Shown here in pieces: positions 15,739 through 50,453 of a stretch of 64,000 nt of DNA. The notes below the pieces were generated by a model. That model ran no database searches and was not told the DNA's origin. It worked only from the letters and a program-made list of their open reading frames with translations. The position numbers and the translations under genes were made by a program. The stretch comes from Moniliella sp. 'wahieum' (lineage: Eukaryota). The DNA lies in assembly GCA_003971905.1 (NCBI GenBank), contig RSEE01000127.1, positions 1 through 64,000 of the forward strand, in the 5' to 3' direction. Every line of letters begins with the position of its first letter. Position 1 is the first letter of the stretch.

Positions 15739-17104
15739 TTACTCTAGCAGAGCATCGGTGAAAAACCGGTCACGATGAAGGACAAAGAAGACGGCACGCT
15801 TGTGCGGCAGCTCAATTTCCCGGCGAAAGTCTTGAGGGAGAAAAGTGGCCAGGAGAGGGATGATGGGCAGGTCGTACCGTGGCTCGCCCAGGACCTTGTC
15901 GGTTCTCGGATCACGCAGGAAACAAGCGTGTTTAAGGGAGACCATGCAGGCGGTAAACCGATGTTTTCCACGGAACTTTTCTTCGCCAATGAGCAAGTGG
16001 GTAGCTTGGTCCCAGTTGCCCAGGTTGCCCACAAAGGGTGCCATACCATCTTCTTTGGACCACACCATTTCTCCGTACCCTGCCAACTCGCCATCCCATG
16101 CAACTAGCACACCCATCGCATGCGGATCCGCAAGTTTGTCCGCAATGTACTGCCGGTGGTGCTCGTCGGGCCCACGCTCCCGCCACCCATGGTTCACCCG
16201 CTCCGAGTTCTGCCACGACTTGTAGGCGGCAAAGTGGGTGGAGTTGGACCCATCAATGTGGATCAGTTCCAGGTGCTGGCCGACGGAAAAGATGAAGCGC
16301 GAGTAGAGGACGGAGCCGGGGGCGGGCTTGGGCGGGCGCAACGGATGGGTCGTCAAGACGGGCGGCGAAACACTTTGAGTAAAGGATTGCGTGTAGGGGA
16401 ACAGACCCGTGGTAGGTACTGTGGATTGCAACCAGTTCCATTCCTTGGGCGCCCCAGCTGCCTGCCAAAACGTCGACCTGTCCAGCAGCACAACATCCTT
16501 GTCGGTCGGACTGACAAAGCCCAAACCAGTCTCCACAAGCAACGGCAGCAGCTCGGGCTGGTGCACAAGGATCGGGAGACGATCCGAATCCTTGTGTCGG
16601 ATCCAGACTAAAATGCAGCCGCCATTCAGGTCATAATATGGTAAGTACATTTCTCAGGTAGGGGACGTATCCTGCGTATCCCTAGGAATGTGCAAACGTA
16701 CATGGGTAAATGGAGGCCCACAAGGACCGCTGGGTGTCGGTGTGATCTTGAATGTCGAGTTTCCAAGTGTTCTGGCGCGTGGCACGGTCCTCATTGACAA
16801 TCCCGTGCTGGCTGGTTTTGACCAGACGTTCGGTCTTGGTCCACAATGCAAACACTTGCTTCTTGTCCGCGTCCCACGAGAGAGAGATGGTGGTCTGGGG
16901 GGCATCCAGCGCACTCTTGTCGTCATCAGCGCTACCCTCACCAGCAACATGCACATCCGCTGTCACACTGGTCTTGCGGCCAGGCAGGGTGAAGGTGTGG
17001 GTGCCCTGGGCGAGAAACACTTTGTACTCCTTGCGCGGGACAAAGTCGGCGCGCAAGCCAGGAGTGCGGGGCGCGGGGGAGGCGATGTTGGCCGAGTCGG
17101 ACAT
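15739..17104 (-). CDS. N5-hydroxyornithine acyltransferase (IucB/AlcB GNAT family; Fer5/SidF-like)
   Basis: HPLRPPKPAPGSVLYSR, WQNSERVNHGW, GYGEMVWSKED, HLLIGEEKFRG, FLRDPRTDKVLGEPR, ELPHKRA. N-terminal part begins MSDSANIASP at 17104 and joins by a small intron or frameshift near 16650-16700. Confidence 0.85.
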
Positions 17105-18892: not shown

Positions 18893-21800
18893 ATGGTGTG
18901 GCCCTCCCTGCCCGCCCGCTTCCGCTCCCGCCGCCCCACCTTCCCCCAGAACAGGCCTAGCAGCGACGCTTGTGGCACCGACACCGATCCTGATGCCAAG
19001 CTATCCAACGTGCCCACCGACCAGCAACAGCACATAGCCGAGCTGGGGCAAGTGCCACTCCAGCCCACGCTCGAGCCCTGGCCTCCTCGGCCTTGGTGGC
19101 GCCGTGTGCCCTTTATGAGTACCACTCCGCGTCCATCCTCTCTGCCCTGGATGACACCGATCCAAGAGCCACGCCAAGTCCCGAACAGTCGGCCAGCCTC
19201 TTTTCTCACCTCTGGTTCGCCTGGATCGATCCCCTGATTCGTGTAGGCTACACCCGCCCGATTGAAAAGGACGATCTGTGGCTCTTGCCCGAGCAGCGCC
19301 ACTCGGTCGTTCTCGGAACCCGGCTGCTCCAAGCCCTTGAGCGGCGACAAGCTCAACGTGCCGAGTACCTGCGCCGTCACCCGAAAAAGGCATCCAAGGA
19401 CCCGCTCATTCCACCGTTCATGTGGGCCATGAATGACGTGGTGTTTGGGTATCTCTGGTTTGGCGGCTTGCTTAAGTTGTTGGCTGATGTGGGAACGTGC
19501 GTATTCCATCCTTTGGTGCCCCTTTTCCCCCTCTTCCCCCTTTTCCCCTCTTGACCACACTGTACTGACATGCGCGTGTTCTTTGATCCATTGACAGAAT
19601 CACGAGCCCGTTGCAAATGGCGCGCGTTGATTGATTTTGTCCAACACTCGTACCAGTACAGGGACCAGCGCGAGTTGGCGCCCGACATTGGGTGGGATTG
19701 GCTTGGCATTCGGCATCTTTCTTCGTCCAAGCGTTCGTTGTCTTTTGTAACGTCCACGCCTTTGCACGTGGCTTTGGATCGGGCATTTTGCTCCGCGCTG
19801 CCATCATCCAAGCTGTCTTTCAGCGCGGTATGAAGCTCTCGTCGCGCGCTCGGATCGGACAGGGGTTCAATACGGGCAAGTTAGTCACCTTTATCAGTGC
19901 CGATGCGTCCCGCATTGACTTTTCTGGCCAGTTCTTTCACATGACCTGGACTAGCCTGGTACAAATTTTGATCTGCGTTGCGCTCCTGTGCTGGCAGTTG
20001 GAGTACAGTGCGCTGCCCGGGATCGCGTTCATCTTCATTATGAGTCCTGTGCAGACGCTGCTGACCAAACAGCTGTTCAAGTTGCGTAAGAACAGTATGA
20101 TCTGGACCGAGCGACGCAACAAGGCCATCAACGAGCTTGTCGGTGGCATTCGCGTCATCAAGCAGTTCGCATGGGAAGAACCTTATGCGCAACACATCCA
20201 TCACCTTCGCAACGAGGAAATGAAGTACAGTTCCAACGTAAACGCATGTTTCTCCGAGCGGTCAACTTGGCACTAGCGTTTGCCACCCCAACCTTGGCCT
20301 CTGTACTGAGTTTTGTCACGTACGCTTTGGTCGGTCATGGGCTACAGCTGGCTCATCTTTTCTTCGTTGGTCTACTTTCAACTACTGCGTACTCCGCTCC
20401 AGTTCCTCCCTGTCGCATGGAACGCAGTGGTCGACGCCAAAAATGCCGCTGACCGGATCGGAAAGCTGTTTGAGGCAGAGGTGTTCCACACGGAAATCCG
20501 CCGCGACCCCATTCGCCATACGGTGTGTCCATTGTCGATGGGTGCTTTACGGGGAGTCGGCTGCGGCGCCCAAGACCAAGTTGGAGGAAGAAACTGAAAA
20601 GAACGAGAAGCAGAAGGCGAAAAACAAGGAGAAGGAGAAGGAGAAAGATGCCAACGGGGGGTGGACACCAAAAAGCCACTCGTCGCCTCGCTTAGCAACA
20701 TCAACCTAACCTTGCCCAAGGGGTGCTTGTGCGCCGTCATTGGTGGCGTAGGGAGCGGCAAGATTCTCTCCTTTCGGCCTTGACGGGGGAAATGCGCCAG
20801 GAGGGAGGAGAGGTGACGTTGGCTACGGATCTAGCCGTGTGCAACCAAGTGGCTTGGATTCAGAGTGCCAGCATCAAGGATAACATTCTGTTTGGCTCTC
20901 CGTACGATCCAGCGCGGTACAACGAGGTGGTGAAAGCGTGTGCGCTTGTGCCGGATCTGGAGGTGCTGGAAGCAGGAGACCAAACTGTCGTGGGGGAAAA
21001 GGGGGTGTCCCTTTCGGGCGGACAAAAACAACGCATCAACATTGCCCGTGCGCTCTACAACGGTGCAGAGACGGTGTTGTTGGACGATTGTCTCTCGGCG
21101 TTGGATGCGCGCGTCGGCGCCGACATATTTTCCCATGTGATTGCTGGACCGGCCATGGCGGGCAAGACGCGCGTGTTGGTCACCCACGCTCTGTATGTTC
21201 TTTCCTCGTGCGACTGGATCGTTCTCATGGATGAAGGCCGGATTGTGGAACAAGGCACGTTTGATCACTTGCTTCATGCCAATGGCCGTGTGGCGGAGCT
21301 ACTCCATCTGTACACCAAGAACAAGGCCTCCTCCTCGACCGCAGCAGAGTTCGGCCAAGAACAGCGTGCATGGCCTGCCTAGGGAACGGGAAGTAGATGA
21401 ACAAGAATACGGTTCTGTACTCTCGGAGGATGCGAAGCCAGAAGACGACAAGGAGGAAGATGGGAAGGCAACCGACTTGGACGCGGTTCCTCGGGTGGAG
21501 AAGACGGATGGCAAAGTCCCCACTGAAGTGTCGGAAAACAAGACGACCAGTCCCAGAAGGCGCCAAAGGAAACCTCACCAAAAGCGCTAATGCAAGCCGA
21601 AGAGCGATACAGCGGGTCGGTAGGACGAGGGGTCTATCTGCGTTACCTCCGTTCCGCACCACTGTGGCTACTCTTCCCGCCTTTTGTGATTGCTGTGGTG
21701 ATCTTTCAAGGCTCGACCATCGTATCGCCTCTTTGGCTCATGTGGTGGCAAAACGACTCGTTGCCTGTGCCCTCAGGGGTCTACATGGGCTTGTATGCTG

Positions 21801-23343
21801 TATTTGGTGCGACGCAGTCCTAGGCCTGCTGGGCATGGGCATCATTTTCTCCTGTTTCTCCATCTGTTCAGCTACCACTTTGCACAACAAAATGCTCAGC
21901 CGCATACTCCATGCGCCCTTTTCCTTTTTCGATACGACACCCCAAGGGCGCGTCACGCACCGCTTCTCCAAAGATGTGGACACACTCGATAATCTGATCG
22001 GGGACATGTCGCGAATGCTGATTGGCACCATTGTTCAAGTGGTGGGCTCCATTGTGCTGATTGCAGTCCTGACTCCTTACTTTTTGATTGCTGTGGCGAG
22101 TGGTATCCATCTACCTCTTCATCGCGCTGTATTATCGTTCCACAGCACGGGAGGTGCGTCGCGTCGACGCCGTTCTGCGCTCTAACATGCACGAGCACTT
22201 TTCCGAGGCGCTCAATGGGGTGAACACGATCCGTGCCTATGGTCAAATCGACCAGTTTATCGCCGAAAACTGTAAACGGATCGACCGTGAGAACCGGGCA
22301 TACTGGCTCTCTCAAGTCTGCCAGCGCTGGCTTTCCATCCGTCTGGACTTTTTAGGATCGCTTCTCGTTTGCCGTGGCACTCTTATCGTCCGGCATGCGC
22401 TTTTCCATGAGCCCCGGTCAGTCGGGCGTGGCTCTGTCCTACATTATGACCGCACAGAGCTTGTTTGGCTGGGTCATCCGTCACTCGGCCGAATTGGAAA
22501 ACAACATGTCGGCCGTTGAGCGTGTGGTTCACTATGCCACTCAAGTCGAGCAGGAACAACCGTACCATCTCCCCGAGGTTGACGACCACCTCGCTCCCAC
22601 CTGGCCTAGTACGGGCGAAATCACTTTTGAACATGTCGATGCGCAGTACAAGACGGGAACACGCAAGGTCCTTGACGACCTTACCCTTCACATTCGTCCA
22701 GGGGAGAAGGTGGGCTTTGTAGGCCGCACGGGCGCGGGCAAGTCGACCCTGGTCACCCTCTTGCTCCGCACACTCGAGCTGGCAGGTGGTAAGATTGTGA
22801 TTGACGGAGTGGACATTTCCACCCTGGGTCTGCACCGTTTGCGAAGCAGTTTGACCTTGATCCCTCAGGATGCAGTTATCTACTCGGGCACACTGCGGTA
22901 CAACCTCGATCCGTTAGGGGAGTACGACGATGCACGACTGTGGGACGCGCTGCATCGGACGTCGCTTTCCGAGCTCAGCCTCGACATGGACATTTCCGAA
23001 GAAGGCGGTAACTTATCTGCCGGCCAGCGCTCGCTCATCTCCATTGCTCGTGCTATGATTCGCAGAACGAGAATTGCATCTTGGACGAAGCCACAGCATC
23101 GATTGACCAGGAAACCGACCGCAAGATCCAAAGTTTGATCGAAACTAGCTTTGACGGTATCACCACTTTGACCGTCGCACATCGTATCCAACCATTGTTC
23201 ATTACGACCGCGTCTGTGTCCTGGACCAAGGTCGTATTGTCGAGTTCGCTCCCCCCGCTCAGCTGTACCAAGACCCTAATTCCATCTTCCACGCTTTGTG
23301 CGTCGCAGCTGACCTGCATTTCGAAAAGGGCGAGTGGATCTAA
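18893..23343 (+). CDS. ABCC/MRP-type full-size ABC transporter (Fer6/Yor1-like)
   Basis: TMD1, NBD1 (GGVGSGK, LSGGQKQR, LLDD), TMD2 (FFDTTPQGRVTHRFSKD) and NBD2 (GRTGAGKS, LSAGQR, DEATAS). Intron ~19497-19598; stop TAA 23341-23343; frameshifts. Confidence 0.9.
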
Positions 23344-23410: not shown

Positions 23411-24722
23411 CTAGTACTACTACTCCCAAGCTCTCCTTCTACATTTCTTCACGTTAATGCCACTGGACGTCGATGAGCTTCCGTTTCCGTTTTCCCCCGT
23501 AGGAGAGCACCCTGATTATGGACCGTCTACAGCCCGCCAGTTTGCAGGTTTGCTTTCTGATACCATACCGCCTTGTTAGCAAGGTGTGCTGCTGGTGACA
23601 GTTCATACATGATTCGGCTGAGATCTGACTGAGAAATATGGCTTCCATACTTAGACGCAGCGGCACATCTCCTCGGGTGCGCTGGCACTGTACACCATGC
23701 ACCATGCTTCACTTATCACGGCGCGCTGGCCCACGAAAGAAGACGAGACGGAGCCTGTCCCACCGCAGGTCCCACCGCAGGTCCACCCACGTTCCATATT
23801 CCACGTTCCCACCTCGCTTTCGGTCCACTGGCAGGCTCCAGGTGCAATCGGCCGCGACTGCCGTGAAAGCACGCGCGATGCTCGCGAGCATGAATGGGCG
23901 CATGGGCGCATGGGCACCAGCTGGATGGAGTATGGATGGGGCGTTCGTTGGTGTTGGTGTTGACATTGGCGTTGGTGCACTCCAGTCTGCTACGGCGGAT
24001 TCACGTGCAACGTTCGTAGAGGCAGGTGGTGCATGGGGGTCGGTGGTGGTCGATAGCTTGGAGGTCGATGGGCGAGACGATGATGGATGATGGATGATGG
24101 ATGATGGATGATCGTCGATCGATGCTGGTGCATGTGAATGTGATTCATGATGCACATGATGGAGCTTTGAAATTTGAGGCCTGAGGCTGAGGACCAATGA
24201 GGAATTGATGGATGATGGCTGATGGATGATCGATGGGCAGCACGGGGCGGGTGCTGCGGACGTCGCGGGTACTAGCGGTGCTTCACATCAACGTGCAAAT
24301 GTTCAACGCCGCTATCGATCGATCCGCAGCGCCCCTTGGCTGTCACGCGTCACGCACCACGTGTTGAGAATTTGAGCGTGGGAGCGCCCCGTGCGGCGAC
24401 GGGCGAGGGTGGCTTCGGTGCACAGGGGCAGTGTGCGGCGCCTGCCTCAGCACAAGCGGTGGGCGGTGGAGCAGGCAGGCAGGTGCGGGGCGGCAGATGC
24501 GCGCCCTGCGAGGGGGCGGGCAATTAACGGGGGCCCACAGCAGGGCGCGTGCCACGAGGCACATGTTATCTGCTGCCGGGCATATTTTTGCACCGCAGAT
24601 TCATATGCGTTGCTGCCCAGAGCAGCTCTGCTCGGCCGGCCCTCTTCTCGCTCCGGCACGCCCTTCCCTCCGTTCGGCCACCACCACCCCCCCAACCCCC
24701 CCCAACCCCTCCCTACCCCGCC

Positions 24723-26300
24723 ATGGCTCTCATACGCACCGCCACCGCCTAGAAGGCTCCTCTCCCACCACCGACCACAGCCGCCCCCATCGTCTTCCCC
24801 CCCACCCTCGCCTCCCTCACCCCCCCGTCTCGCCTCCACCCCCCCCCCCCCAACCAACCTACGACGATGCTCTGCAGCTCCACCCCCAGCCCCGCCCCTC
24901 CCATGTCTGCTGACGCGCCGGAACCCGAGCCCGAGCCGCTTTCAGCTCGGCCTTCGCGTCCCCCCACCCGCCCTACGTCCCCGACCCTGCGCTCCTGCCT
25001 CAAGCGTACGCCTAGTCCGGCGGAACCAGCTTCGCGGCGTTCGGTGCCGCGGCTTATGACCCCAAGCGCCTCCTCCACCTCGCTGGCCTCGTGCGAAAGT
25101 GTTCGGTCCGTGCGCTTTTCAGCCGAAGAGGTGCCTGTGTTTGCGACGCACAGCGCTAGCGAGTACGATCGTCGGCCCTCGAGTGTCGCCTACCACGGTA
25201 TGGCAAGTTTGTTGGGTGCGGGGCCCCATCGGTTCGAGGACCAGGACGACGATAGGGACGCTCCCCCGCCAGGCACGGGCGCTGGCGAGGCTTGGATCAA
25301 GGCCCGCATCGCCTCGACCAACCAGGCGGAGATGGAACAGGCGACTTCCCACCCGGATGTCGAGGACAGTATTCAGGCCATGTGGGCCTTGGGCGCAGCT
25401 CGCCTAATGGGTCTAGCCCCTGAGGAGCAGGCAGGAACAAGAGCAGGAGCAGGATCAAGAACAGGCAGGAGCAGGAGCAGGAACCCGAGCTCGAACCTAC
25501 AGCGTCTCCCGAACGCGAGCACTGTCCTGCCACGTGCTTGCCTGTCCCGGCCTTCACATCCTCTTTTGACGGTCCAAGACCCCGCTCCGCCCGCCTCAGA
25601 CGGAGACGACGAGACTGTGGTCGCGACCGAATCGGATGGCCTCGGCTCGGACTCGGATACAGACTCCAACTCCAACTCCAACTCCAACTCGGACACGGAC
25701 GCAGAGCCTCAAACGATCTTCTTGTTTCGCTACGTGGGGACGAGAACGAATTGAAGTTGCCTGCACCGCGGACGAAGAAACATAAGCTCCAACCCACCAC
25801 TCGCCCCGTGTGCCCCGATGCGAAATGTGCCGTGTCGATGGGGCCCGAGGCAGGAGCGGAAGCGGAACGGGATGGGATGGGGACTCAGCGCCTGGCTCAG
25901 CCCCCATCTGTATCCGTGGTGGGAGCGGGAGGGGGGCTGGACGCATACCCACTGCCCCACCTCACCCGGAAGCCGAGTCGGGGTGGATATCCTCTTCTCC
26001 GCGCAGTCCGCCTGGTCTATGTGGATCCACAAGTTCTGCCCCATCATCACCATCGTCGCTATCGTCGACGCGGGCTCGCGCTCCGTCTCGCCAAGCATAC
26101 CATTTACCTCGGGAAGGGGCACCTTGCCTCCCTTGCCATGTGCCTTGCCCGACGACCAGGCTCGCGAACGCGAACGCGCACGCTTAGGTATGGGTCCCCA
26201 TCACCATGCCAAGCTTAATCGCAAGGCACATGTTCAACGCGTTTGCCTCATGGCCCGGTTTGGCTTGTTGGACCAGCCGCCACGCCTTTGCCGGGTGCGA
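24723..26300 (+). CDS. Low-complexity hypothetical protein with SVRF...THSASEYDRRP motif (Bni4-like PP1-docking motif)
   Basis: ORF 24867-25754 has RSCLK and SVRFSAEEVPVFATHSASEYDRRP. Both ends are uncertain because of frameshifts. Confidence 0.45.
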
Positions 26301-28714: not shown

Positions 28715-30615
28715 TCACTCGCTCTTTATCAGAGAGTCGTGCACCCAATGCATTCCACGTCCATTGCATTGCGCCGCAGTAACAGATATTGTGATGCATG
28801 GTGAGATATTACTCAGTCCTCTCAGCGTAAGAGATCCTGGCAGGTGCTCCTCATTTAAGGGGTTGTTCTCAAGCTCCACCTCGGTAGAACCCGACTTGGC
28901 TTGCACCGGGTTCGACTGAACAACAACATGTTGGGGTCGTAAGGTAGCAAAGGTTAGATAAGAAGTATGGCCACGCATCTGCATTGTAACGGTGTTAGTC
29001 ACTCCCTTTCTCTCGGCTGGATTCTCATCGTACCTCTGAGGCAGGCTTGGACAAGACGTTGGCTGCCTTGAGGGCCGTGGTACCGCTCGATACTTTGGGG
29101 CCCGACGCAATCAAATACTCAGTGCTCGACGAGGAACTGGGGTCCTTGGTCTTGGCTTCGGACATTTGGGTTGATTGTGGTGTGGGTTGCACCTCTTGAT
29201 CCACAAGCATAGCTTCGTCCTCTGCGTTCTGCAACTTGACCCTCTTGGAGGTGGAGGACGTACTCTCGGGAGAGGGATCGGCAGGACGCTTGTCTCCCGT
29301 GCTAGCTGGGTTGCTTTCGTCCGTTTCGGTTTCGGGGCGGGAAACAAGCTTGGCAGCAGCCTTTTCCTTCTTGATTCGAGATCGTTCGATCTGCTCCAAT
29401 CGCTTGATTTCCTTGATCCGCTCAATTTCCCGCAATCGCTCGGCCACCTGCGTGACATCTTTGAGTGGTCCGAGGGAAGCTGTAAAAGGCTGATGCTCTC
29501 TGGTGAGCGACTCGAACGTCTCCACCTCAGTAAAGCCAGCTTCGGATAGAGCTTGGGTGGTGCGCAGAACTTGTTCCATGCAAGGACTGAAGGTACAGAT
29601 CCTCGTCGCCACATCGGGGTTGAGTGCGGCCTTGGCAAACGGAACCGCCTCCCAGGGAGCAGGAAGGTCGAGGAAGATCGCATCAGCGTACATGCCTTCA
29701 GGCAATCCAAAGCCCGAGCGACAAACATTGCGATGGTTTAAGGCTACCACACCGGGTACCAAGCCGTGCGCTTCAAACTCGATTCTGGAAAACAAAAAAA
29801 TGTGATGTCAGTCAAGCGAATCAGCACTTTTTTTGGAAGAAACAGTGCACGTACTTGGCCTTGCGTGCCCGTTCCGAGTGGAACTCAAACGACCATACCC
29901 GTCCCTCATTTGCACCAACGGCCCACCCGCCTCGTCCAAGGTCAAGGTGTTGTCCGATCCCGAGGGGGACGTGTCGTCGTCGTCCACACAGCCCAGATCT
30001 TCCGTATCCGCCGCAGCGTCGTAGTCAGGGTTGTCCGACTTGGGCCGAGCAGGACGAGCATTGCGACCTGCACCACGACCTTGCGTCGAACCCATCCCTG
30101 GCACGCCAGCCAGCGGACACTCCGCTGGGCCTCGGTTGCGACGGCACGGACTAGAGCATGCGTCATGCTCCCACTCCCAGTTCCCGCCTCGATCACTCGT
30201 GCTCCTGGAGTGAGCCCGAGATGAGAGGAAACAAATGAAATGTCAGGGTAGTATAGGATCTGGGTACGATGGGGTAGCGCCAAGGTCCACAGCGATGCGG
30301 TGGGACGGAGGAGGTGAATGAAGCCCTTCTTGTTGCGGCTGAAGATACGACTTCCAAATGGAAGCCCAATCATGTCGTTGTGCGGAAAGGCGCCAAACAC
30401 ATTCACAAACTCTTGACCAGGCGTGACGGTGAGAGGCAAGGGAGTGGCAGTGTGGGAGACAAAGAGGATCACCAGATCGCCCGGTTGGATCGTGAGATGT
30501 TTCCTGGCAACACCCATCGGCTCCCTGGAGGCGATGTCGAAGGGGTGGCAGAAGCGTTAACAACCGATACATCCGCGAGGGTGGTTGCGTCAGAGGCGGG
30601 GTCAGAGGTGGCCAT
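28715..30615 (-). CDS. TRM61: tRNA (adenine58-N1)-methyltransferase catalytic subunit
   Basis: LWTLALPHRTQILY, VIEAGTGSGSMTHAL, DAIFLDLPAPW, FSPCMEQV, RGHTSYLTFA. Introns near 29786-29852 and 28979-29032. Confidence 0.92.
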
Positions 30616-31171: not shown

Positions 31172-33586
31172 TTACTGCTTGAACGAGCCAAAGACAGCAT
31201 TGCCATCGGGCAGCGCCAACAAACTGTCCAACTGAGCCCACGCATTGCCGTGTTGCGGTGAATACGCCTCATTCTCGGGAAAGCAGAGCACGCCAGGTGG
31301 GAATAACCAAACGAAGTGCAAACCGAGCCAAGACAAAATCAAAGATCAACTTACGTTCGAGTGGGCTGAACGGCCGGACATCGTTGTACCCCCGCAAGAA
31401 ACTTAGTCCCCGCTCCAGCCAATCCGAATCGCTGTCGGGTGCACCGAGACTGTACACTGCACCCACCGCAGCATCCTGCACCACAGGGGCACGGATGGAA
31501 TCGCCCCAATCAATGATCCCTACCACTTCATCAGGTGCGGTGTGGCTGACCAACACATTGGCCGCATTCAAATCGTTGTGTACCACCGACTGCTCCAGCT
31601 CACCACTCGCCACATAGGGAGCGACCCGTTGCTCATAATTGACAATCAATCCTCGACTACTTCTCGCTCCTTGTCAGAGCGTAGTGCATCCATGTACTTG
31701 CGCATCTGTGCTACATGCGTAGCGTCCCACAGCAGCTCGTGGTCTTGGCCGGGGTGGGAAAAGTCTTTGAGCGCAAGGCTGATCTGGGCCCCCACTCGAC
31801 CGATGTTGTACGCTTGAGCGGGCGTACGGGGAGATGAGCTGAGCATGTCGCCCTCCAAAAAAGTGACAACCCTCACCACTCGGGTCTGGAATAAGAGCTG
31901 ACCCTCGCTATCCTTCGGTGAGGCCGTTGGTGACGGTTCAATCACCCGGGCTACAGGCAAGTGCGGCGCCACCTTCTGGAGATGGTGCAGGATCGATGTT
32001 TGGAAGGCCGACATCTCGGCTGGTTCGGAAGGATGAACAAACTTGATGGTGAAACGCTGGCCGTCCGAGGCGGTCACTCGAAAGTTGTCGTCCCGTTCCC
32101 CAATTAGCCGCTTGAGCGGCTGAGCGGCCGTGATACCGAAGTGCTGTTCCAGCACCTCTTGAGCTTCAGCCTCCGTCACTGGGGTCCGGTCCGCCTCCAG
32201 AACCGAGCCGCCCGTATTTGTTGGTCGTGTGAGGGATGCACTCTGTATGGTTGCCTCGAGCGCGGCCAGGAAATGCTGGGCATGGGCTTTGGTGAATGCA
32301 AGAAGAGGGCGAATCTTGAGCGAATTGCCTGCCTTCGAGGTGGTTGAGATAAGCACTCTGCGCTCCCGCATTGCGTTTACCACCAGCTTGGCCAGGTCGG
32401 CATCAGGCTCCTTGGACCCTCTGTCCTTCACGAACTCGACGGCAAAGTACTGTCCTGCGCCACGAACATCACCAATACAAGCGTACTGCTCTTTGAGCCG
32501 CTCAAGCCCTGCGAGAGTGAACCCCCCTACTTCCGCAGCTTGGGGCATGAGACGTAACACCTCGTCAAGTGTGGCTGGCGGCTGCGATGCTCACTGGGTT
32601 GCCTCCAAAGGTATTGAAGTACCTTACGTCTCGGCCAAACGTATCGGCGACATCAGATCGAGCGATGCAGGCAGCAACGGGAACCCCATTTCCCATGGGT
32701 TTGCCCACTGTGACCAGGTCGGGAAGGACACCATGATTCTGGAAACCCCATACTTTGCTCCCCGTCCGACCAAACCCGGGCTGAACCTCATCGGCGATGA
32801 ACAGTCCATCATGTTTGTGCACCACTTCCACTGCCGCCTTCAAAAATCCCTCGGGGCCGGGGAACATGCCGTCAGATGAGAAGATCGTGTCAACAAGGAG
32901 GCCGGCAAACTTGATCCCAGCTTTGGTCATGTCCGCAATCGCAGACTCAATGTCGGCGGCAAACTTGGCCCCCACATCAGTGCCGGTAGGCGTGCGGTAA
33001 AAGTCAGGAGCAGGGACAGTGCGAGCATGCGGGTGCAACGGCGTGCCGGCACCCATGCTGGGTGAGAGAGAGGCGATGAGCTCAGAGTGCCATGGTACGC
33101 ATTGTCGGTGACAATAATACCTGTGCCGCCAGTGAAATGCTTGACCATGCGTACCGCCAGATCGTTCGCCTCAGATCCAGTGCAGGCAAACATGATCCGC
33201 CCCTTGCAGCTCGGGCTCGTGATCAAATGTAGCCAAGAGCCGGTCTGCATAATTGAGAATTTGGTCACTCATGTAACGGGTGTGGGTATTGAGGGTGGCG
33301 AGTTGCTTGCTCACCGCTCCTACCACATGGGGATTGCAGTGCCCGACGCTGACCACGTTGTTGTAACAGTCAAGATACGGGTGCCGTCCGGGTCGTACAG
33401 GTGCACGCCTTCGCCGCGCACGAATTCGACGGGGTGCTGATATTGAAGCTTGTAGGCGGGACCCAGCAGGCGCTGGCGGCGTTCAATGATGGTACGCTCG
33501 TGCGTATTCAGCGCTCCAGCGGTTCGAGGGTCGAATCCGTTCTGCATTCCTCCCGTAGGGTCGGAAGTGGACTTGGGTGCGGACAT
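31172..33586 (-). CDS. Fusion: class-III PLP aminotransferase/phospho-lyase (N-term) + aminoglycoside-phosphotransferase/hydroxylysine-kinase-like domain (C-term)
   Basis: AT-III motifs TGSEAND, FIADEVQPGFGRTG, VTVGKPMGNG, YFNTFGGNP, LKIRP. Kinase motifs GERDDNFRV, VVHNDLNAANVLV, GIIDWGD. The domain junction lies inside the uninterrupted ORF 31646-32560. No introns seen. Confidence 0.85.
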
Positions 33587-33923: not shown

Positions 33924-35188
33924 TCAATCGGACAATACAATGGGCTCAACAGGTGCAGGTGCTGTCGTTGCCGTGGCAGTTGCGGGTCGGAGAATATCAT
34001 CCGGTACGGCTGCGAAAATGACATCGTCGTCATCGTCCATGAAGCCTTCCGACTCATCTTCTACTATTAACGGTATGTCTTGCGCCGTGGCCGTCGTCTG
34101 TGGTGGGGCTCGTGAGTCTTGCGTTACTTGGGAGGCAGTGGGGCGCCTGCCAGCGGGGGGCCTCCCCGCGGTGGGCTCTGCGTTAGGTCGGATCCCCAGT
34201 TCTTTCTCAAGACGACTGACATAGTTCACTTCCCATCCATCTTGGAGCTCAAATACGCTCCCGCCAAGAATTTGCACGTTGCTGTTTCGCAGCAATAACT
34301 TGCCTTCTTGTACCTCGACATTTCGCAATAGCAACTGAGGAGAGTAGGAATAGGTTAGCTACCGTCATTGATGCCTTAGGGATGGGGGAGTAGAGCAGAA
34401 ACAAGGCGTCATTACCTTGCATCCCAATGGGGTAGCTCCCATCCGTAGACCCTCTATCCTTTCCATCTCAATCCCAACAACAGAAGGAGCATCCATCCCG
34501 CCCGCCCTTTGTTCAGCGGTACTGGCCATACCATCGTCCAGCTCCAAGAGGAGCATCGAGCGCGGGTATTTGATACCGGTAGCAATCGCTTCTTGCTCCT
34601 CAGCTGTCATCTCGCCAGTGTTTTCCTCCTCTGCAGGCAAGCGTGCCTCGGGTGCCTGCATGTTGCGCGCATCCTCTGCTAAGAGTTTTTTGCCAGCCTC
34701 AGTTTGTCGAGCAAGAAGACGAGAGCGTGTGATGTCGAGGAGGGTTTGTTTGGAGACGCCAATATCTGGTGGAGTACATGATCCATTGGTGAGTGAATGC
34801 GCGGCAGGGAAAGATCCAGACGGAAGCGCAACACACCTGTGATGCCCACGATCTGTACCAGCAGTCCTTGGTGTTTCTTGGGGCCTTCGGAGGAGCTGAG
34901 CCAGGCATGTTGGGCCCGACTCACCCCGCCGTCGGAGCGAGGGTGCAGACACGAGTCAAACCCACCTCGTTTCTGTGCCCGGCGCTCTGTGTCGATGAGG
35001 GCGGCCAGGTCGGCATGGAGGAGCTCGTGGTGGACGCGCGCCTGTAGCGCACTGAGCCCTATGCTGGGGTTGGAAGAGGCAACGTACTCAGTGGCGTCCT
35101 GGACCCACTCGCGGTTGAGGGGGAGAGTCGGGTACCGGGACAGAAGGTAAGCATGCACCGCCGCCACCTGGGTTCGCGATTGGGCCAT
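33924..35188 (-). CDS. RMI1: RecQ-mediated genome instability protein 1 (OB-fold)
   Basis: LLVQIVGITDIGVS, YPRSMLLLELDDG, GIEMERIEGLRMGATPLGCK|LLLRNVEVQEGKLLL...ILGGSV. Two introns. Confidence 0.8.
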
Positions 35189-36138
35189 GGGCGCACAGGT
35201 TGGGGCCGTGGGACACAGGAGTGGCGGTGACTGTGTGGCTCTCCTCCGGGTCTGCTGTTGCGGTTGCGCGTGGCGAGCACGCCTGGCCGAGCCGGGGGTG
35301 GCGCGTTGGGCAAGGATTGAAACGTGCAATGCCGGGCCTGGCTGCACGTGATGCGTGAGCAGCGTGAACGTGGCCGGGTGGCCGGTGGCATCCGCACCAA
35401 CGCGAGTTGGCCTCCTCAGGTATTGAAGATCTAACTCGCCAGTCTCCGCCACACCTGGAGGCTACTGCTCACCGCGGGGCGGCCTCAGAGGAGCCAACCC
35501 CGCACAACTCAGCACTAATGGGGATGGGTGGGGCAATAGCGGTGGGCAGTGGGTACTCTCTATATACATTGACTTTTCTCCATCGCATGTCAACAGTGCC
35601 AGGCTTTTCGCTGTCTTTTAAGATCTGGGTCTGAGATCTAGGTCTGGATCTGAGAACGTGAAGCATCGCTGCAGGCCACGAGGTTGCCAGTGAGGAATGG
35701 CGTTTCCATGGCGGTGGGAACGCCAAGCGATCTCGATGGGTGTGTCTGGCTTGAAACGGCGACTGTGCTGGGATTGCGACGGCGCAGACTGGACTGGGCA
35801 AAAAAAATTGCTACCTGCTGCAGGTTATCTCCGGGCATTGCACCGATGCAACCCTTGGGCAGTGGGGGCTGTCAATCATGCATGGCACTGGTGCCCTCGC
35901 TCCTGGAAGCGGCACAGCGCCAGCATGAGCCGTATCGATCATGCCTGATTCGGGGCTGCAACCGCTGACCGGGGGGTAGGGTTGCAGCCAGAGTGCACTG
36001 GCGTAGGCGCGGTGGCGGGGGTGGCGGGGGTGGCGCGGCGGCTCGGCTCGCTTGGCGTGAGGTGGGTCATCCACCACCACCACCACCACTCTCCCCCTTT
36101 CCCCTTGCCCCGTCCTCGATACGCATCGTCTGCACAAC

Positions 36139-37842
36139 ATGTCCAATACTGGACGCAACACAGGCCGTCTGGACTTGTACAAGAGCAAGGGACTACTCCA
36201 GCAGGATGATCTTCGCCGCCGCCGCGAGGATCAGCAAGTTGAGATCCGTCGCCAGAAGGGGAGGAGACTCATGCTAAACGCCGTCAGATGGATGTCTCTC
36301 AGATCGAACTTACTGATGACGACACCGAGGATGAGGATGCCGTCGGTGCCATGCTCTCTGGTCAACGGGTGCGTTTTTTTACTCCAACGCCTGTTTCATC
36401 CCCTACCAATGGATGCCGTACTGACTTATCTCTGCACAGCTTCAGGACCTGCTGCCTCAGATGGTAGCCAAGCTTATGTCGGACAGTGAGCAGGACCAGC
36501 TGGAAGCTACCACTCAGTTCCGCAAGTTGCTTTCCAAGGAGAAAAATCCTCCTATTGAACGTGTGATCGCTGCTGGCGTCGTCCCTCGCTTTGTGCAGTG
36601 CTTGGCCAGCCCCAACGGCGCTATCCAATTCGAGGCGGCTTGGGCCTTGACCAACATTGCCTCGGGTACGTCGGAGCACACCCAAGTAGTGATCATGGCC
36701 GGTGCCGTGCCAGTGTTCATCCAGCTGCTCTCCTCCCCGAGGTGGACGTGCGGGAGCAAGCAGTTTGGGCGCTAGGTAACATCGCCGGCGACAATGCCGC
36801 ATGCCGTGACTTTGTCCTCACCGAAGGTGCCATGACTCCGCTTCTTTCTCTTCTCAATGAGAACCAAAAGATGGGTATGCTGAGAAACGCAACCTGGACG
36901 CTAAGCAACTTTTGCCGGGGCAAGAACCCTCCCCCTGCGTGGGAGTTAGTCGCACCAGCCCTGCCCATGCTGGGTAAACTCATTTATTCGACTGATGAAG
37001 AAATCCTGATTGATGCTTGTTGGGCGATTTCCTACCTGTCGGATGGGGCAAACGACAAGATTCAGGCTGTGATTGAATCGGGAATTGTCCGCCGTCTGGT
37101 TGAACTCCTGGCCTTCGATTCGACGGCTGTCCAGACTCCTGCTCTGCGCTCGGTCGGAAACATTGTCACGGGGGATGACTTGCAGACCCAGGTTGTCGTG
37201 GCTTCTGGTGCGCTTACCCCTCTCCTCGCCCTCCTCTCTTCTCCGAAGGATGGAATCAAGAAAGAGGCTTGCTGGACTATCTCGAACATCACCGCTGGCT
37301 CGACACACCAGATTCAAGCGGTCATTGACGCCGGAATTATTCCTCCTTTGATCGATATCCTTAAGACGGCCGATTTCCGAACCCGCAAGGAGGCCTGCTG
37401 GGCCTTGAGCAACGCCACGTCTGGGGGGTTGCAGCAACCTTCCCAAATTCGTTACCTTGTGGATCAAGGTTGCATCAAGCCCCTGTGTGATTTGTTGACT
37501 ATTATGGACAACAAGATCATCCAGGTGGCCCTTGACGGAATCGAGAACATTCTCAAGGTTGGAGAGCAGGACAAGATAGCCGCTGGACCTGGAGCGGTGA
37601 ACCATTATGCGCTTCAGGTTGAGGAGGCTGGTGGTATGGTGACGATTCACCATTTGCAAAACCATGAGAACCACGACATCTACCAGAAGACGTTCTTTAT
37701 CATGGACCACTATTTCCCTGAAGAGGAGGACGATGTTGCCGATGGGGTTGCTCAACCCGCAGTGGACGAGCAGGGCGCCTACACCTTTCAAACTGACCTG
37801 GCCGCGCCGCAAGGTGGGTTCTCGTTTGGACCGGCTATGTAA
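36139..37842 (+). CDS. SRP1: Importin subunit alpha (karyopherin alpha)
   Basis: IBB domain ([16 protein letters not shown]), ARM repeats ([43 protein letters not shown]). Intron ~36369-36439. Confidence 0.96.
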
Positions 37843-45887: not shown

Positions 45888-46040
45888 GGGCTAAGGGCTT
45901 GAGCGCATGTGGCCAAAGCCATTGAGCGCATGGGCCAAAGCACTTGATCTCATGTGGCCAAAGCGCTTGATCTCATGTGGCCAAAGCGCTTGACCTCTTG
46001 GGCCAAAGCGCTTAACCTCATGTGGCCAAAGTGCCTAAGG
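45888..46040. repeat. Minisatellite, ~7 imperfect 22-23-bp units (GGCCAAAGCGCTTGATCTCATGT)
   Basis: Read directly. Units are head-to-tail with no spacers. Confidence 0.85.
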
Positions 46041-46797: not shown

Positions 46798-46980
46798 TGT
46801 AACAGTCGGGGCTAAACGAGGGAGACCAAGGTCCTGTCAGAGGCGGGGAAAGGCAAGATCGTTCGTGGGAGGGAGGAAACAGAAGGCATCAGGCAGAGAA
46901 CAGAAGCAAAAGGGAAGGGAAGAGCAAGAGACACAGGATGCGGAATTGGAAATTGGAGCGAGCTTAGTCATTCGGTGACA
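46798..46980 (-). repeat. 3' LTR (183 bp)
   Basis: Direct repeat of 52337-52516 with TGT...ACA ends, next to the polypurine tract. Confidence 0.95.
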
Positions 46981-49900
46981 TTGCCCCCTTTCAGACCTCA
47001 CCTCCCCGGCTTCGGAGGAGGCGGGCAAGGCAATGCGACGGGAGCGGGAAACAGGCTTGTCGGGGTACTCGCATGGAAACGAACCACCGGGTCGGCGTCG
47101 GGACATGTCCGCGGCTGGCACCCACTCCCGCTCGTGGACCGGGTAGCCTCGGAAATGGACAAAGTACTCGAGACGTCCACCGCGACCCTTACGGCGGGAG
47201 TCAAGAACCTCTTGGACCTCGTGATGAACCGCCCCATCGTCGGCATACTCGGGAAGGGGGGGAGGGGGCTCGACCAAGCGGTTAGAGACCTCGTCGCCTG
47301 GGCTATAGGCGCGCAACCGGGAGACGTGGAACACATCGTGAATGTGAAGCCAATCAGGCAAGCGAACCTGGTACGCAGCACGTCCGACAGCACGGACAAT
47401 GGGAAAGGGACCAAGGTAGCGATAATCCAACCCGTCGGAGGGACGTTGGGTGGAGAAGTAGCCATCGCGCCGAACCAAAACCGGTTGATCAACTTCAAAG
47501 GTGTCGGCCTCGGTGCGATGCTGATCAGCGTAGTGCCGATACCGCTCCTGGGCAGCGGCCAGCGTCTTCCGAGCTACGGCCTGGGCCGAGCGGAGGCCCT
47601 CGAGGTACGATGCAGCGTCCGGCACGGCCGACGACGCAGCCGCCAACTCACCGCGGGGCGAGTAGCCATACGTAAGGAAAAAGGGGGACGCGCCTGTGCT
47701 GGAGTGGGGAGAAGAGTTGTAAGCAAACTCGGCCGTGGGAAGAAGATCAATCCAGTTTGACTGCTGCTCATCCAGGTAGCAACGAAGGTACTGCTCGAGC
47801 ACCTGGTTCACTCTCTCCGTCTGCCCGTCCGATTGGGGGTGATACGCCGTGCTGAGGCTCGAGTGGATGCCCAAGTCACTGCACAGGGCCCTCCAAAAGT
47901 GGCTCGTAAAGGTAGGACCACGGTCGCTGACCAAGTCGCGCGGCAACCCATGGTAGCGGAAAACGTGGTGAACAAACTGGTGGGCAAGCCGCGGCGCCGT
48001 GTCCGTTGTGTGGGCAGGAATGAAATGCGCCATCTTAGTGAACCTGTCCACCACGACCAAGATGGCATCGAACCCCTTCGAGGGTGGAAGCTGGGTGATG
48101 TGATCCATCGTTAAATGAGTCCACGGGCCTTGAGGTGGGGCCAAGGGTTGAAGCAAGCCAGCGGGAGGACGCCGCGGCACTTTGGTCCGCTGACAACGGT
48201 CGCAAGAGCGCACATATGCCCACACGTCGGCCGACAGGCGGGGCCACCAATACTGCGACCGCACACGCAACCGAGTCTTGTCCCGCCCTTCGTGTCCTGC
48301 CAGCGCGGAGTCGTGGGCCTGGAAAAGGACAGCCGCGCGGAGAGGGGCATCGGGGGGGACATAGATCTGCTCCCATGCCACAGGAGGCCATCGCGAACGG
48401 TAAGAGCATGAGGGGGGGGTCGCGGGGAGATCGCAACGGCCCAACGGGGGTCGCGGGGGCACCAAGTCGCGGATGCGCTGCTGGATCTCGTCGGCCGACA
48501 AGCGCGCCACGGCGCACGGCGCGTCGGGCTGAGTGGACATGAGCTCGAGCACAGCAGCCGAACGCTCAGAGACAGGCTCCAGCAGGGTCTGGGGGGCAGC
48601 CTCGGCAGGGCGAGAGCCGATGGAAAGATCGGGGCGACGGGACAAGCCATCAGCGGCAGCATTCTTCGTCCCGGAGCGATACACCATGAGTAACCGGTAG
48701 GGCGACAAGGTCTGACGCCACCGGCCCTGCCGGCGGTTCAGGAGGCGCGGCCGGCGGAAGGTAGCGATCGCCTCGTGGTCCGTAAGCACCTGGACCGTAT
48801 CGACGCTCTCAACATAGTGGCGCCACACTTCGACGGCCGCCACAATGGCAAGCACCTCCTTCTCAGACGTGGTATAGTTGAGTTCGGCTGCGACAAGCTT
48901 GCGGGAATGGAAGGCGACAGGCCGCCAACGACCATGTTCGTCCTGCTGGGCCAGCACGGCACCCAAGGCGGCATCCGATGCGTCAGTCTCAATGCGGAGT
49001 GGCCGACTGGGGTCAAAATGGCAAATGACATGGGGAGAAGCGAAGGCCCTCTTGAGGTCGTCGAAGGCGCTTTGGCAGGCAGGCGTCCAATCAAACCGCT
49101 GTGTCTTGCGGGTGAGGTCGGAAAGGGGTGCCGAAATGCGGGCATAGGAGCGAATGAAGTGGCGATAGTAATTGGCAAACCCAAGGAACACCTGAACTTG
49201 GCGACTGGTCTTGGGCGTCGGCCATGCTTTGATCGCTTCCACCTTAGCAGGATCCATTCCGATCCCCGTGGGCGAAACGACATAGCCCAAATACTCAGTC
49301 TGGGATGTGTGGAACTGGCACTTGTCCGGATTAAGGTAAAGCCTTGCGCGCTGCAGACGCCGCAACACCTCGGCAACATGCTCCTCGTGTGCCTTCTCGT
49401 CCGACGAGAATACCAAGATATCGTCCAAATATGCCAGCACCGAGACGTCGAGGAGGTCCCGGAGGAGATCATTCATTATGGCTTGGAAAGTGGCGGGCGC
49501 GTTACAGAGACCGAACGGCATGACGAGCGACTCAAAGTGACCATACCGGGTACGAAAAGCCGTCTTGTACTCATCGCCCTCCTTGACCCTCAAAAGGTTG
49601 TACGCCCCACGGAGGTCAAGCTTGGTAAAAACGCGAGCCCCGGACAAGCGATCGAGCGAGTCACTAATCAAGGGGAGGGCCATACGATTCTTGATGGTAA
49701 TGGAGTTGAGAGCACGATAGTCTACACACAGTCGGAGCGAGCCATCCTTCTTCTTAACAAAGAGAACACCCGCCCCAAACGGCGATTTAGACGGGCGAAT
49801 GAACCCAGAGGCCAAATTTTCGTCAATCCAACGGCCCAGGGCATCCATCTCGCCCGTAGAGAGGGGATAGAGACGAGTGAAGGTGGGAGTAGCGCCGGGC

Positions 49901-50356
49901 ACGAGGTCGATCGAATGGTCGGCCGCACGATGGGTGGGAAGCGTCTTGGCGCCAGACTTGGAGAAGGCATCAAGATAGGCATGGTAGCGGGTAGGCACCG
50001 TTTTCCGGACGTGGTCGACATACTCCGGGGTGTCAAACTCGTCAGGGAACACTGGCTCTGGACCCTCTGCAACGGAAACAGACGAAATGACCAAAGCTGG
50101 GTCACTGGGACGGGCAACGCATACCTCGGTGTGGGGATCGGCGGCCACCTCTCCTTCAAACTGTTCCAAGGAAAGGAGGTCAATCGGCACGCTAGGGGGA
50201 AGGGAGGACTGGGAAGGGGTGGTACCGGAGGGTGAGGAGCGAAGACGCGTACCTTGGGGAGGGGGGGACTGGTTTGAAGGTGGAGGCACAGACTGGTACG
50301 GAAGCTGAGAGGGGGACTGCGGCGGATGTGGGGGAGGGGGGAACTGGTTGGGGAGA

Positions 50357-50453
50357 TGCTGGTGCTGGTGCTGGTGCTGGTGCTGGTGCTGGTGCTGGTG
50401 CTGGTGCTGGTGCTGGTGCTGGTGCTGGTGCTGGTGCTGGTGCTGGTGCTGGT
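50357..50453. repeat. (TGCTGG)n hexamer microsatellite within pol, between protease and RT
   Basis: About 16 perfect units, encoding QH repeats in the RT frame. Confidence 0.9.

Follow-up and report, generated by a model that had tools for sequence, protein, structure and literature searches.

The window analysed, a stretch of 64,000 nucleotides of contig RSEE01000127.1 from Moniliella sp. 'wahieum' (GCA_003971905.1), carries on its minus strand, at 31172-33586, a gene in which a class-III PLP enzyme domain precedes a small-molecule kinase domain. The ATG lies at 33584-33586 and the TAA at 31172-31174. A frameshift-aware alignment to P0001 (818 aa), one of nine other protein clusters with this lyase-first order (P0001-P0009), covers 33577 to 31178 and is colinear with P0001 residues 3-813; conceptual translation gives 807 residues, each of the six broken codons being written as X. 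The gene and its parts are as follows.

31172..33586, minus strand: whole gene, from colinearity with P0001 and the ORF map
32249..33586, minus strand: N-terminal segment with a conserved GGMQNGFD motif, and class-III PLP phospho-lyase-type domain (Pfam Aminotran_3)
32700..32702, minus strand: codon of the lysine, presumably PLP-binding, of the stretch VGKPMGNG, which aligns through P0001 with MGKPMGNG of 5g4i and 6tor
32198..32248, minus strand: inter-domain linker IQSASLTRPTNTGGSVL, 17 aa, within the unbroken 314-aa ORF 31646-32590
31175..32197, minus strand: C-terminal small-molecule kinase domain of the APH fold, matched by Pfam APH in two pieces
31572..31580, minus strand: putative kinase catalytic loop H-N-D (VVHNDLNAANVLV), from the translated pieces
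31500-31511, minus strand: putative kinase metal-binding D-W-G-D, from the translated pieces

Successive pieces of the gene match Pfam Aminotran_3 at positions 29-83, 69-131, 150-300 and 310-402 and then APH at 8-142 and 158-223, which confirms the order of a class-III aminotransferase before an APH kinase given in a preliminary description of this DNA, as the P0001 alignment confirms the position and strand of the gene. The junction of the domains, linker included, is free of stops as had been claimed, and its ORF alone matches P0001 with E = 2e-129, far above chance; the length of the linker region differs among P0001-P0009. The gene was also correctly described as intronless unlike its neighbours, since it is colinear with its homologues, with gaps no larger than a few residues and no introns, whereas importin-alpha nearby has one. 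What did not hold is the claim of one complete reading frame, because six frame breaks interrupt the gene and only the junction is continuous.

Three genes around it were used as flanks or as a control.

33924..35461, minus strand: RMI1, fungal, upstream neighbour (Pfam RMI1_N_N and RMI1_N_C), ending 337 bp from the ATG of the fusion gene
29025..30556, minus strand: GCD14/TRM61 tRNA methyltransferase subunit, fungal, downstream neighbour (Pfam GCD14, in two pieces)
36139..37842, plus strand: importin-alpha, control gene, with one intron and two 1-nt deletions

GCD14 lies about 600 bp downstream of the fusion gene; both it and RMI1 are on the same strand as the fusion gene. About 290 nt are unaligned between the two GCD14 pieces, and this gene probably contains an intron. 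The importin-alpha intron was located by removing 36369-36439, which restores the alignment. Importin-alpha is 78% identical to that of Tilletiaria anomala, the named matches listed are all fungal with Basidiomycota on top, and the host chromosome is that of a basidiomycete. The third-position G+C content (GC3) of the fusion gene is 0.638 versus 0.60-0.70 in host genes, about 0.5 in Brenneria and Pectobacterium and about 0.75 in Pseudomonas. The gene is thus physically integrated among native genes, as its RMI1 and GCD14 flanks and its host-like GC3 indicate.

Translation of the assembled sequence from the ATG meets a stop after 88 codons, and the minus-strand stop-to-stop ORFs run over 33601-33320, 33482-33171, 33268-32927, 33170-32565, 32590-31646, 31673-31269 and 31345-31172. 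The frame changes at six sites.

33378..33379, minus strand: frame break 1, codon keeping two bases, 1-nt deletion
33206..33206, minus strand: frame break 2, codon keeping one base, 2-nt deletion, in a column filled in P0001 and P0002 only
33084..33085, minus strand: frame break 3, 1-nt deletion in a family-invariant Thr codon
32576..32576, minus strand: frame break 4, 2-nt deletion
31650..31651, minus strand: frame break 5, 1-nt deletion
31283..31283, minus strand: frame break 6, 2-nt deletion

Each break falls in a single alignment column, with P0001 and P0002 occupying all six columns and all nine homologues occupying four, so that every site reads as a codon short of 1, 2, 1, 2, 1 and 2 nt in turn. 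Introns were ruled out as the source of the frame changes, each break being one codon column without extra DNA. The strict 1,2,1,2,1,2 alternation of deletion sizes is a point against assembly error.

No nonsense codon and no larger indel is present in any piece of the gene. Of 240 columns invariant in eight homologues, the gene retains 229; one coincides with a break and ten differ, seven of which have a similar residue instead. The catalytic motifs are intact in the translated pieces. Small deletions also occur elsewhere in the window. Importin-alpha has two of 1 nt, at 36260 and 36738, in about 1.6 kb; independently, its alignment to PDB 4rxh_B puts residues 23-126 and 125-486 in different frames, which overlap in the DNA at 36736-42. 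The adenylation domain of an NRPS is likewise split into pieces that overlap by 1 nt of DNA and adjoin at 170/171 of the profile. Because the same type of deletion recurs in these two genes, the invariant residues are retained and nonsense codons are lacking, the six breaks are most likely errors of the assembly consensus, and the organism itself probably has an intact gene.

Alternatively, the locus could be a true pseudogene, acquired or inherited, that is now decaying through six small deletions. This is unlikely. In its favour, six breaks in 2.4 kb reduce the product from the ATG to 88 codons, about double the density seen in importin-alpha, where 2 fall in 1.6 kb, and the close homologue P0002 also lacks family sequence past IDW in the kinase domain. 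In addition, a retrotransposon pol ORF (46837-50712) is unbroken across 3.9 kb of the same window, so errors are not uniform across it; no LTRs flanking this element were found by a gapless repeat search, a method that indels would defeat. At the importin-alpha rate, however, about three breaks would be expected, a number that six does not strongly exceed (Poisson P about 0.07). Importin-alpha is moreover an essential single-copy gene only 2.5 kb away, and the like deletions there and in the NRPS, together with the intact motifs, the 229 conserved residues and the absence of nonsense codons and larger indels, argue against decay. In unique genes, the assembly has about 1-2.5 deletions of 1-2 nt per kb, a rate that makes calls based on ORFs in this window unreliable, among them "one reading frame", "pseudogene" and "intron".

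The fused protein belongs to a small and rare family. Among 390 classified sequences, 206 carry both domains, 196 of them kinase-first and only 10 lyase-first. The kinase-first order was also found in 23 of 32 homologues scanned with Pfam (six of the 32 with an M23 domain in between), and these counts bear out the earlier remark that bacterial fusions put the kinase first. The identity of the fused clusters to P0001 falls to 57-60% in the PLP domain and 38-43% in the kinase domain, and none of P0001-P0009 is sourced from NCBI or UniRef proteomes. In a search of 1.84 billion proteins, only two of the best 150 representatives span the junction in one stretch. A search of the ESM Atlas with P0001 gave bacterial two-domain clusters only (Aminotran_3 and APH), in a listing without domain order. 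Homologues with an organism name are all bacterial (15 of 15 in one listing and 9 of 9 in another), with no fungal name among them, and searches of the literature for a fusion in fungi, or one with the lyase first, gave no paper.

The kinase-first fusions of the APH-(Peptidase_M23)-Aminotran_3 type (PRK06148/PRK06149) are the most frequent architecture among the 390 homologues. They share both catalytic domains with the window family and give the top NCBIfam match for each family member that was tested, but their domain order is opposite and many have M23 between the domains. P0001 stays below the curated cut-offs of 1128 and 973 bits, scoring 641 and 443 respectively (models of 1015 and 972 positions) and matching in two stretches of permuted order with the M23 part absent. 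Both domains have their closest named relatives in an unfused kinase-then-lyase operon of Brenneria, Pectobacterium, Pseudomonas and Klebsiella plasmids (L001-L005), whose PLP domain is 56-58% and kinase 38-43% identical to P0001 and whose lyase has an N-terminal AGMQNGFD motif in common with the fused family. In these operons the genes are separate, the kinase comes first and both lie inside an amino-acid ABC transporter/GntR/EamA module, a context that the fungal locus lacks. The Klebsiella plasmid module encodes a Lys/Arg/Orn-type substrate-binding protein, two permeases, an ATPase, GntR and EamA and lies between IS elements; the permease, ATPase, kinase and lyase genes are shared by Brenneria and Pseudomonas, and GntR and EamA are also present in Brenneria. 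An old Erwinia report is said to describe an amino-alcohol kinase and an O-phosphate phospho-lyase, which may or may not correspond to the present operon. A scan of 185,579 species genomes with the motifs [GA]GMQNGFD and [ASG]YKLMY[EDQ]H, using one genome per species and therefore liable to miss accessory genes, gave 47 pattern stretches and four relatives, all four split kinase-then-lyase operons, and no lyase-first fusion; the Klebsiella plasmid copies were seen in a plasmid search only.

In the concatenated tree, the 10 fused and 5 operon rows form one clade (100/99) within the kinase-first bacterial fusions. The PLP-domain tree (a 20-row clade at 99) and the kinase tree (a 15-row clade at 99) agree with it, and kinase-first fusions are outgroups in all three. 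These separate phylogenies, which the preliminary description had called for, place both domains among bacterial sequences, and the bacterial look that it had noted in the gene holds. The trees and operons show the descent of both domains from a gammaproteobacterial-type kinase-plus-lyase gene pair. In free trees the bacterial operons fall inside the fused family, beside P0003-P0009 (99/96), which at face value would imply two fusions or a bacterial fission. These trees do not unite the fused forms in one clade; their monophyly is nevertheless not rejected (AU p 0.058; 0.241), and the AU tests permit the operons as sister to all fused forms. The fusion is older than this fungus, as its lyase-first order is common to nine other clusters. 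Hence, of the proposal that a bacterial operon was acquired and then fused in a fungus, the bacterial ancestry stands, and a fusion event in this fungus does not. Nor can a simple read-through fusion yield a lyase-first protein from an operon ordered kinase then lyase.

It is quite improbable that no horizontal transfer took place, the gene being an old, vertically inherited fungal fusion that was mostly lost elsewhere, with the bacterial operons derived from it or recipients. Such a history would account for the diversity of the fused family, down to 57-60% and 38-43% identity with P0001, for the host-like GC3, and for the nesting of gammaproteobacterial operons within the fused family in free trees, and the operon is mobile, being plasmid-borne between IS elements. 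Against it, the clade at large is bacterial and so is every outgroup, no fungal name occurs among the 9 and 15 organism-named rows, the gene is intronless, none of P0001-P0009 originates in NCBI or UniRef proteomes, and a sister position of the operons to the whole fused group is compatible with the AU tests.

The four pieces of the PLP domain cover positions 29-402 of the 403 of Aminotran_3 (PF00202), which P0001 matches over 10-402 with E 1e-70, and the domain is 76% identical to its P0001 counterpart. The lysine of VGKPMGNG is the presumed Schiff-base residue of this fold. In PDB, P0001 finds the "phospholyase" 5g4i (E 3e-101) and the ethanolamine-phosphate phospho-lyase 6tor (E 2e-92, a whole-length match to the PLP domain of the family), and the next entry has 5e-47. 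As 45 orders of magnitude separate these two phospho-lyase structures from the other entries, the domain is placed by similarity in the phospho-lyase subgroup (ETNPPL/PHYKPL/5G4I), in line with the type first suggested, and lyase instead of transaminase chemistry is predicted. The A1RDF1-type phospholyase (PDB 5G4I/5G4J) is the best solved relative, P0001 29-454 aligning with its residues 18-438. It is a bacterial stand-alone enzyme with no fused kinase; a literature search on this enzyme turned up nothing.

There is a slim chance that the PLP domain is instead an aminotransferase, a racemase or an ammonia-lyase of other specificity, and that the pair makes or modifies a phosphorylated amine. 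Class-III matches near 1e-45 include racemases, GABA aminotransferases and decarboxylases, the NCBIfam model of the PbfA ammonia-lyase matches at 1e-57, and the top NCBIfam families, PRK06148 and PRK06149, have no assigned function. The gap in favour of the two phospho-lyase structures speaks against such chemistry, as does the constant coupling with a kinase (206 of 390 with both domains, plus adjacent-gene cases), which fits a route of phosphorylation and then elimination.

The kinase domain matches APH (PF01636) at positions 8-142 and 158-223, contains HNDLNAAN and DWGD, in keeping with the H-x-D-x4-N catalytic loop and the D-x-G-D metal site of such kinases, and is 68% identical to its P0001 counterpart. 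H216, D218, N223 and D239 are invariant across 31 kinases, and by analogy with the APH family these residues would have catalytic and metal-binding roles. A model of the related Brenneria operon kinase (pLDDT 92.9) matches the folds of NahK, homoserine kinase II (2ppq) and an aminopropanol kinase (6ef6). The top TM-score (0.70/0.75, rmsd 4.2) is that of the latter, the microcompartment-associated (S)-1-amino-2-propanol kinase 6EF6, whose substrate is likewise an amino alcohol but which is only 18% identical. Because N-acetylhexosamine kinase and homoserine kinase II match with scores just as good, the substrate cannot be read from the fold, and no sequence-level PDB match for the kinase was obtained at E <= 0.01.

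In the proposed mechanism, the kinase domain would phosphorylate the hydroxyl of a vicinal amino alcohol, and the PLP domain would then eliminate phosphate and ammonia and release an aldehyde or ketone. Similarly, in HYKK/AGPHD1 with PHYKPL/AGXT2L2, and with ETNPPL (PDB 6TOR), a kinase of the APH fold is paired with a phospho-lyase of the class-III PLP type, but the animal enzymes are separate proteins, whereas the window gene encodes one polypeptide with the lyase first. This pathway logic, in which a phosphorylated intermediate then loses phosphate and ammonia, is reportedly that of the 2012 work of Veiga-da-Cunha and co-workers. Veiga-da-Cunha et al. 2012 appears in the reference lists of PMC12138971 and PMC8154272. 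Going by the annotation of the Lys/Arg/Orn-type transporter that adjoins the bacterial operon, our best guess is that the substrate is 5-hydroxylysine or another basic hydroxy-amino acid related to it, with ethanolamine and 1-aminopropan-2-ol as alternatives.

That bacterial contamination or a chimeric join put a bacterial gene into a fungal contig, as the missing introns and bacterial nearest named relatives might suggest, is hardly credible in view of the same-strand fungal genes on either side (337 bp away upstream, some 600 bp away downstream), a GC3 that is host-like and unlike that of Brenneria, Pectobacterium and Pseudomonas, the lyase-first order in 0/4 bacterial loci of the 185,579 species genomes scanned, and bacterial proteins only about 57% (PLP domain) and 38-43% (kinase) identical.

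Taken together, we give a probability of roughly 0.6 to a real, intronless basidiomycete gene for a lyase-kinase of about 807 aa that descends from a bacterial pair, with a fusion older than the fungus and breaks due to assembly errors. A further-reaching reading is tentative and somewhat doubtful: the lyase-first family may be confined to eukaryotes, probably fungi, and may go back to the capture of one mobile gammaproteobacterial operon whose order was inverted and whose genes were fused, which would allow a single protein to strip nitrogen from 5-hydroxylysine or amino alcohols, a capacity lacking in ordinary fungal metabolism.

Pairs of a kinase and a phospho-lyase are a textbook example of inferring function from gene fusion, and the opposite domain order found here broadens this example. 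The unfused, plasmid-borne operon relatives offer a natural test of whether fusion order affects how the phospho-intermediate passes from one site to the other. In fungal biology, the gene would be a further candidate for acquisition from bacteria, and may provide a catabolic shortcut for amino alcohols.

The fusion gene occupies exactly the interval 31172-33586 proposed in the preliminary description, with its start and stop codons at the two ends:

33584-33586, minus strand: ATG start codon of the fusion gene
31172-31174, minus strand: TAA stop codon of the fusion gene
31646-32590, minus strand: junction ORF, a single stop-free frame of 314 aa that spans the join of both domains
32198-32248, minus strand: inter-domain linker IQSASLTRPTNTGGSVL, inside the junction ORF

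Its closest homologue, the protein cluster P0001 (818 aa), is colinear with it from 33577 to 31178 in a frameshift-aware alignment. Pfam positions 29-402 of Aminotran_3 are spread over four successive pieces, and positions 8-223 of APH lie on the next two; therefore, the PLP enzyme (lyase) is N-terminal and the kinase second. This is the reversed order reported earlier, and the linker within the 314-aa ORF bears out the stop-free junction. Of the catalytic motifs, the one around the PLP lysine is present, as are HNDxxxxN and DWGD of the kinase. Alignments over the whole gene agree with the homologues end to end, save for breaks of one codon each and gaps only a few residues long, and reveal no intron, so that "intronless" also stands. 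The claim of one reading frame does not: as assembled, the frame opened by the ATG closes after 88 codons, and stop-to-stop ORFs switch between two frames.

Frameshift-aware alignment to P0001 places six breaks near 33378, 33206, 33084, 32576, 31650 and 31283. When a read-through translation with an X at each break was aligned to the nine clusters of the same domain order (P0001-P0009), every X took up one column, filled by the two closest clusters, P0001 and P0002, at all six sites and by all nine clusters at four; thus each break is one codon short by, in order, 1, 2, 1, 2, 1 and 2 nt. No stop codon occurs inside any of the read-through pieces. The gene keeps 229 of the 240 columns invariant in eight homologues; of the remaining columns, a break accounts for one and substitutions for ten, seven of which bring in a similar residue.

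Breaks also affect neighbouring genes, including importin-alpha, which is essential and single-copy in most fungi:

36139-37842, plus strand: importin-alpha, with 1-nt deletions at 36260 and 36738 and no intron at either

Both deletions were placed by alignment to two basidiomycete homologues. The IBB-domain match ends at about 36268, and the deletion at 36738 is independently supported by PDB 4rxh_B, whose residues 23-126 match one frame and 125-486 another, the two pieces overlapping on the DNA at 36736-36742. These deletions point to assembly-wide deletion errors. The NRPS adenylation domain is broken over at least four frames, adjacent pieces meeting at Pfam coordinates 170/171 with a DNA overlap of 1 nt. 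Because neighbouring genes are broken, invariant columns are kept and the catalytic motifs are present, the six breaks most likely stem from consensus errors of the deletion type in the assembly. Three observations count against assembly error: with 6 breaks in 2.4 kb the fusion gene has about double the density seen in importin-alpha, the retrotransposon pol ORF (46837-50712, 3.9 kb) of the same window is unbroken, and nothing explains why losses of 1 and 2 nt alternate so strictly. A true pseudogene is nonetheless unlikely: an essential gene and the NRPS are damaged as well, and conservation of the invariant columns and motifs speaks against decay.

The gene content of the window is fungal (RMI1, GCD14/TRM61, importin-alpha, NRPS, a chromodomain Ty3/gypsy element), and two of these genes flank the fusion gene:

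RMI1, same strand: upstream neighbour of the fusion gene, with 337 bp between the two
GCD14, same strand: starts about 600 bp downstream of the fusion gene

Importin-alpha is closest to Basidiomycota (Tilletiaria anomala, 78% identical, then Trichosporon, Pseudozyma, Microstroma and Malassezia), and two further protein clusters are 85-87% identical to it. Bacterial contamination as the source of the fusion gene is very unlikely: the gene lies between fungal genes, and its GC3 (0.638) falls inside the host-gene range of 0.60-0.70, unlike that of the bacterial counterparts (about 0.5 in Brenneria and Pectobacterium, about 0.75 in Pseudomonas).

Other features of the window are as follows:

4570-10878, minus strand: large NRPS in many frames (AMP-binding, PP-binding, Condensation, PP-binding, Condensation, PP-binding, Condensation), with an in-frame stop at 6861-6863 within a condensation domain
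15739-16653, minus strand: Acetyltransf_8 (siderophore-type GNAT) gene, beside the NRPS
19635-23138, plus strand: fragmented two-half ABC transporter, beside the NRPS
46837-52069, minus strand: Ty3/gypsy chromodomain retrotransposon, with RT, RNase H, integrase and chromo in an unbroken 1291-aa ORF and the protease in a separate frame (49722-51095)
50357-50493: TGCTGG x23 tandem array, inside the retrotransposon
45893-46031: tandem repeat of a 23-bp unit, about 6 copies, immediately outside the retrotransposon
1222-1296: C-rich 22-bp tandem repeat

The first three look like a siderophore gene cluster. A gapless repeat search found no LTRs around the retrotransposon. Local GC peaks at 63-67% at 1-2000, 24001-26000 and 50001-52000, over a background of 53-60%.

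When the junction ORF was searched against proteins of 551-2000 aa (7659 candidates), 114 matched, and P0001-P0009 (780-894 aa, 37-67% identical) cover 93-98% of it. Pfam analysis of 32 of the 114 found these nine lyase-first and the other 23 kinase-first, six of the latter with a Peptidase_M23 domain between kinase and lyase. HMMER, run exhaustively on 1.84 billion representatives, gave 3926 matches; of the best 150, only P0002 and P0005 cover the junction in one stretch. By BLASTP, the 390 collected sequences comprise 196 with the kinase first, 126 with the lyase alone, 58 with the kinase alone and 10 with the lyase first (P0001-P0009 and the window gene). By these counts the lyase-first form is rare, and the statement in the preliminary description that bacterial fusions put the kinase first was correct (196 of the 390). 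A literature search found no published description of a lyase-first fusion gene. In P0002, family similarity of the kinase domain is gone after IDW and a Pro/Ala-rich tail follows (alignment columns ~815-935), which looks like a frameshift in the source contig.

A family-motif scan covering 185,579 species of bacteria and archaea, one genome each, returned 47 stretches fitting a motif pattern, of which four code for a relative (Brenneria roseae, Pectobacterium fontis and two Pseudomonas). None of the four loci carries a fused lyase-kinase gene; in all, a kinase gene (~350 aa) is directly followed by a lyase gene (~450 aa). Genes for an ABC-transporter permease and ATPase lie upstream in both loci to which Pfam was applied (Brenneria and one Pseudomonas); a divergent regulator of the GntR type and an EamA gene are additional features of the Brenneria locus. 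The same module occurs between IS elements on many Klebsiella plasmids, annotated with a lysine/arginine/ornithine-type binding protein. On a Klebsiella pneumoniae plasmid (NZ_CP019161.1, 39999-54370) the transporter-GntR-kinase-lyase-EamA module has transposase genes of IS110 and IS1 on its two sides and the yersiniabactin gene ybtS within a few kb; it is a mobile catabolic island of large conjugative plasmids. Among the best 120 of 1044 matches to proteins of 172-550 aa, all 15 organism-named rows are bacterial.

In a quick PLP-domain tree (74 rows), the window gene, P0001 and P0002 group together (support 100) within a 20-row clade (99); their sister inside that clade is a 17-row group (99) that combines the remaining fused proteins with ten stand-alone lyases from Gammaproteobacteria. 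The kinase-domain tree (76 rows) has a 15-row clade (99) of fused forms and Pectobacteriaceae kinases, beside which the Pseudomonas operon kinases branch. A careful concatenated two-domain tree (27 rows, 776 columns) unites the ten fused rows and five operons (100/99) within the kinase-first fusions, the window subclade having 100/100 and the other twelve rows 99/96. From the three trees, both domains therefore share a single bacterial-type ancestry with the two-gene operon. Unconstrained trees place the operons among the fused forms, and the AU test leaves a single fused-form clade unrejected (p = 0.058, PLP tree; p = 0.241, concatenated tree), so the trees permit a single fusion event but do not demonstrate it. 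The fusion is older than the window organism; of the horizontal-acquisition proposal, bacterial origin is supported and fusion inside this fungus is not.

As for function, the full PLP domain of P0001 finds its two best PDB matches in 5g4i, named 'phospholyase' (E 3e-101), and in 6tor, an ethanolamine-phosphate phospho-lyase (E 2e-92); no other entry does better than 5e-47. The top NCBIfam models, PRK06148 and PRK06149, are uncharacterised kinase-M23-aminotransferase fusions and score under their cut-offs. The operon kinase has no sequence-level relative in PDB; its structural model (pLDDT 92.9) matches APH-fold small-molecule kinases, including N-acetylhexosamine kinase, homoserine kinase II and the aminopropanol kinase 6ef6 (TM 0.70/0.75). 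The kinase would transfer phosphate to the hydroxyl group of a vicinal amino alcohol, and the PLP domain would then eliminate phosphate and ammonia. The leading guess for the substrate is 5-hydroxylysine, favoured because a basic-amino-acid transporter adjoins the bacterial operon, this annotation being its one basis. The fusion gene is a rare lyase-first version of an established pairing of kinase and phospho-lyase, of bacterial ancestry, in a basidiomycete genome.
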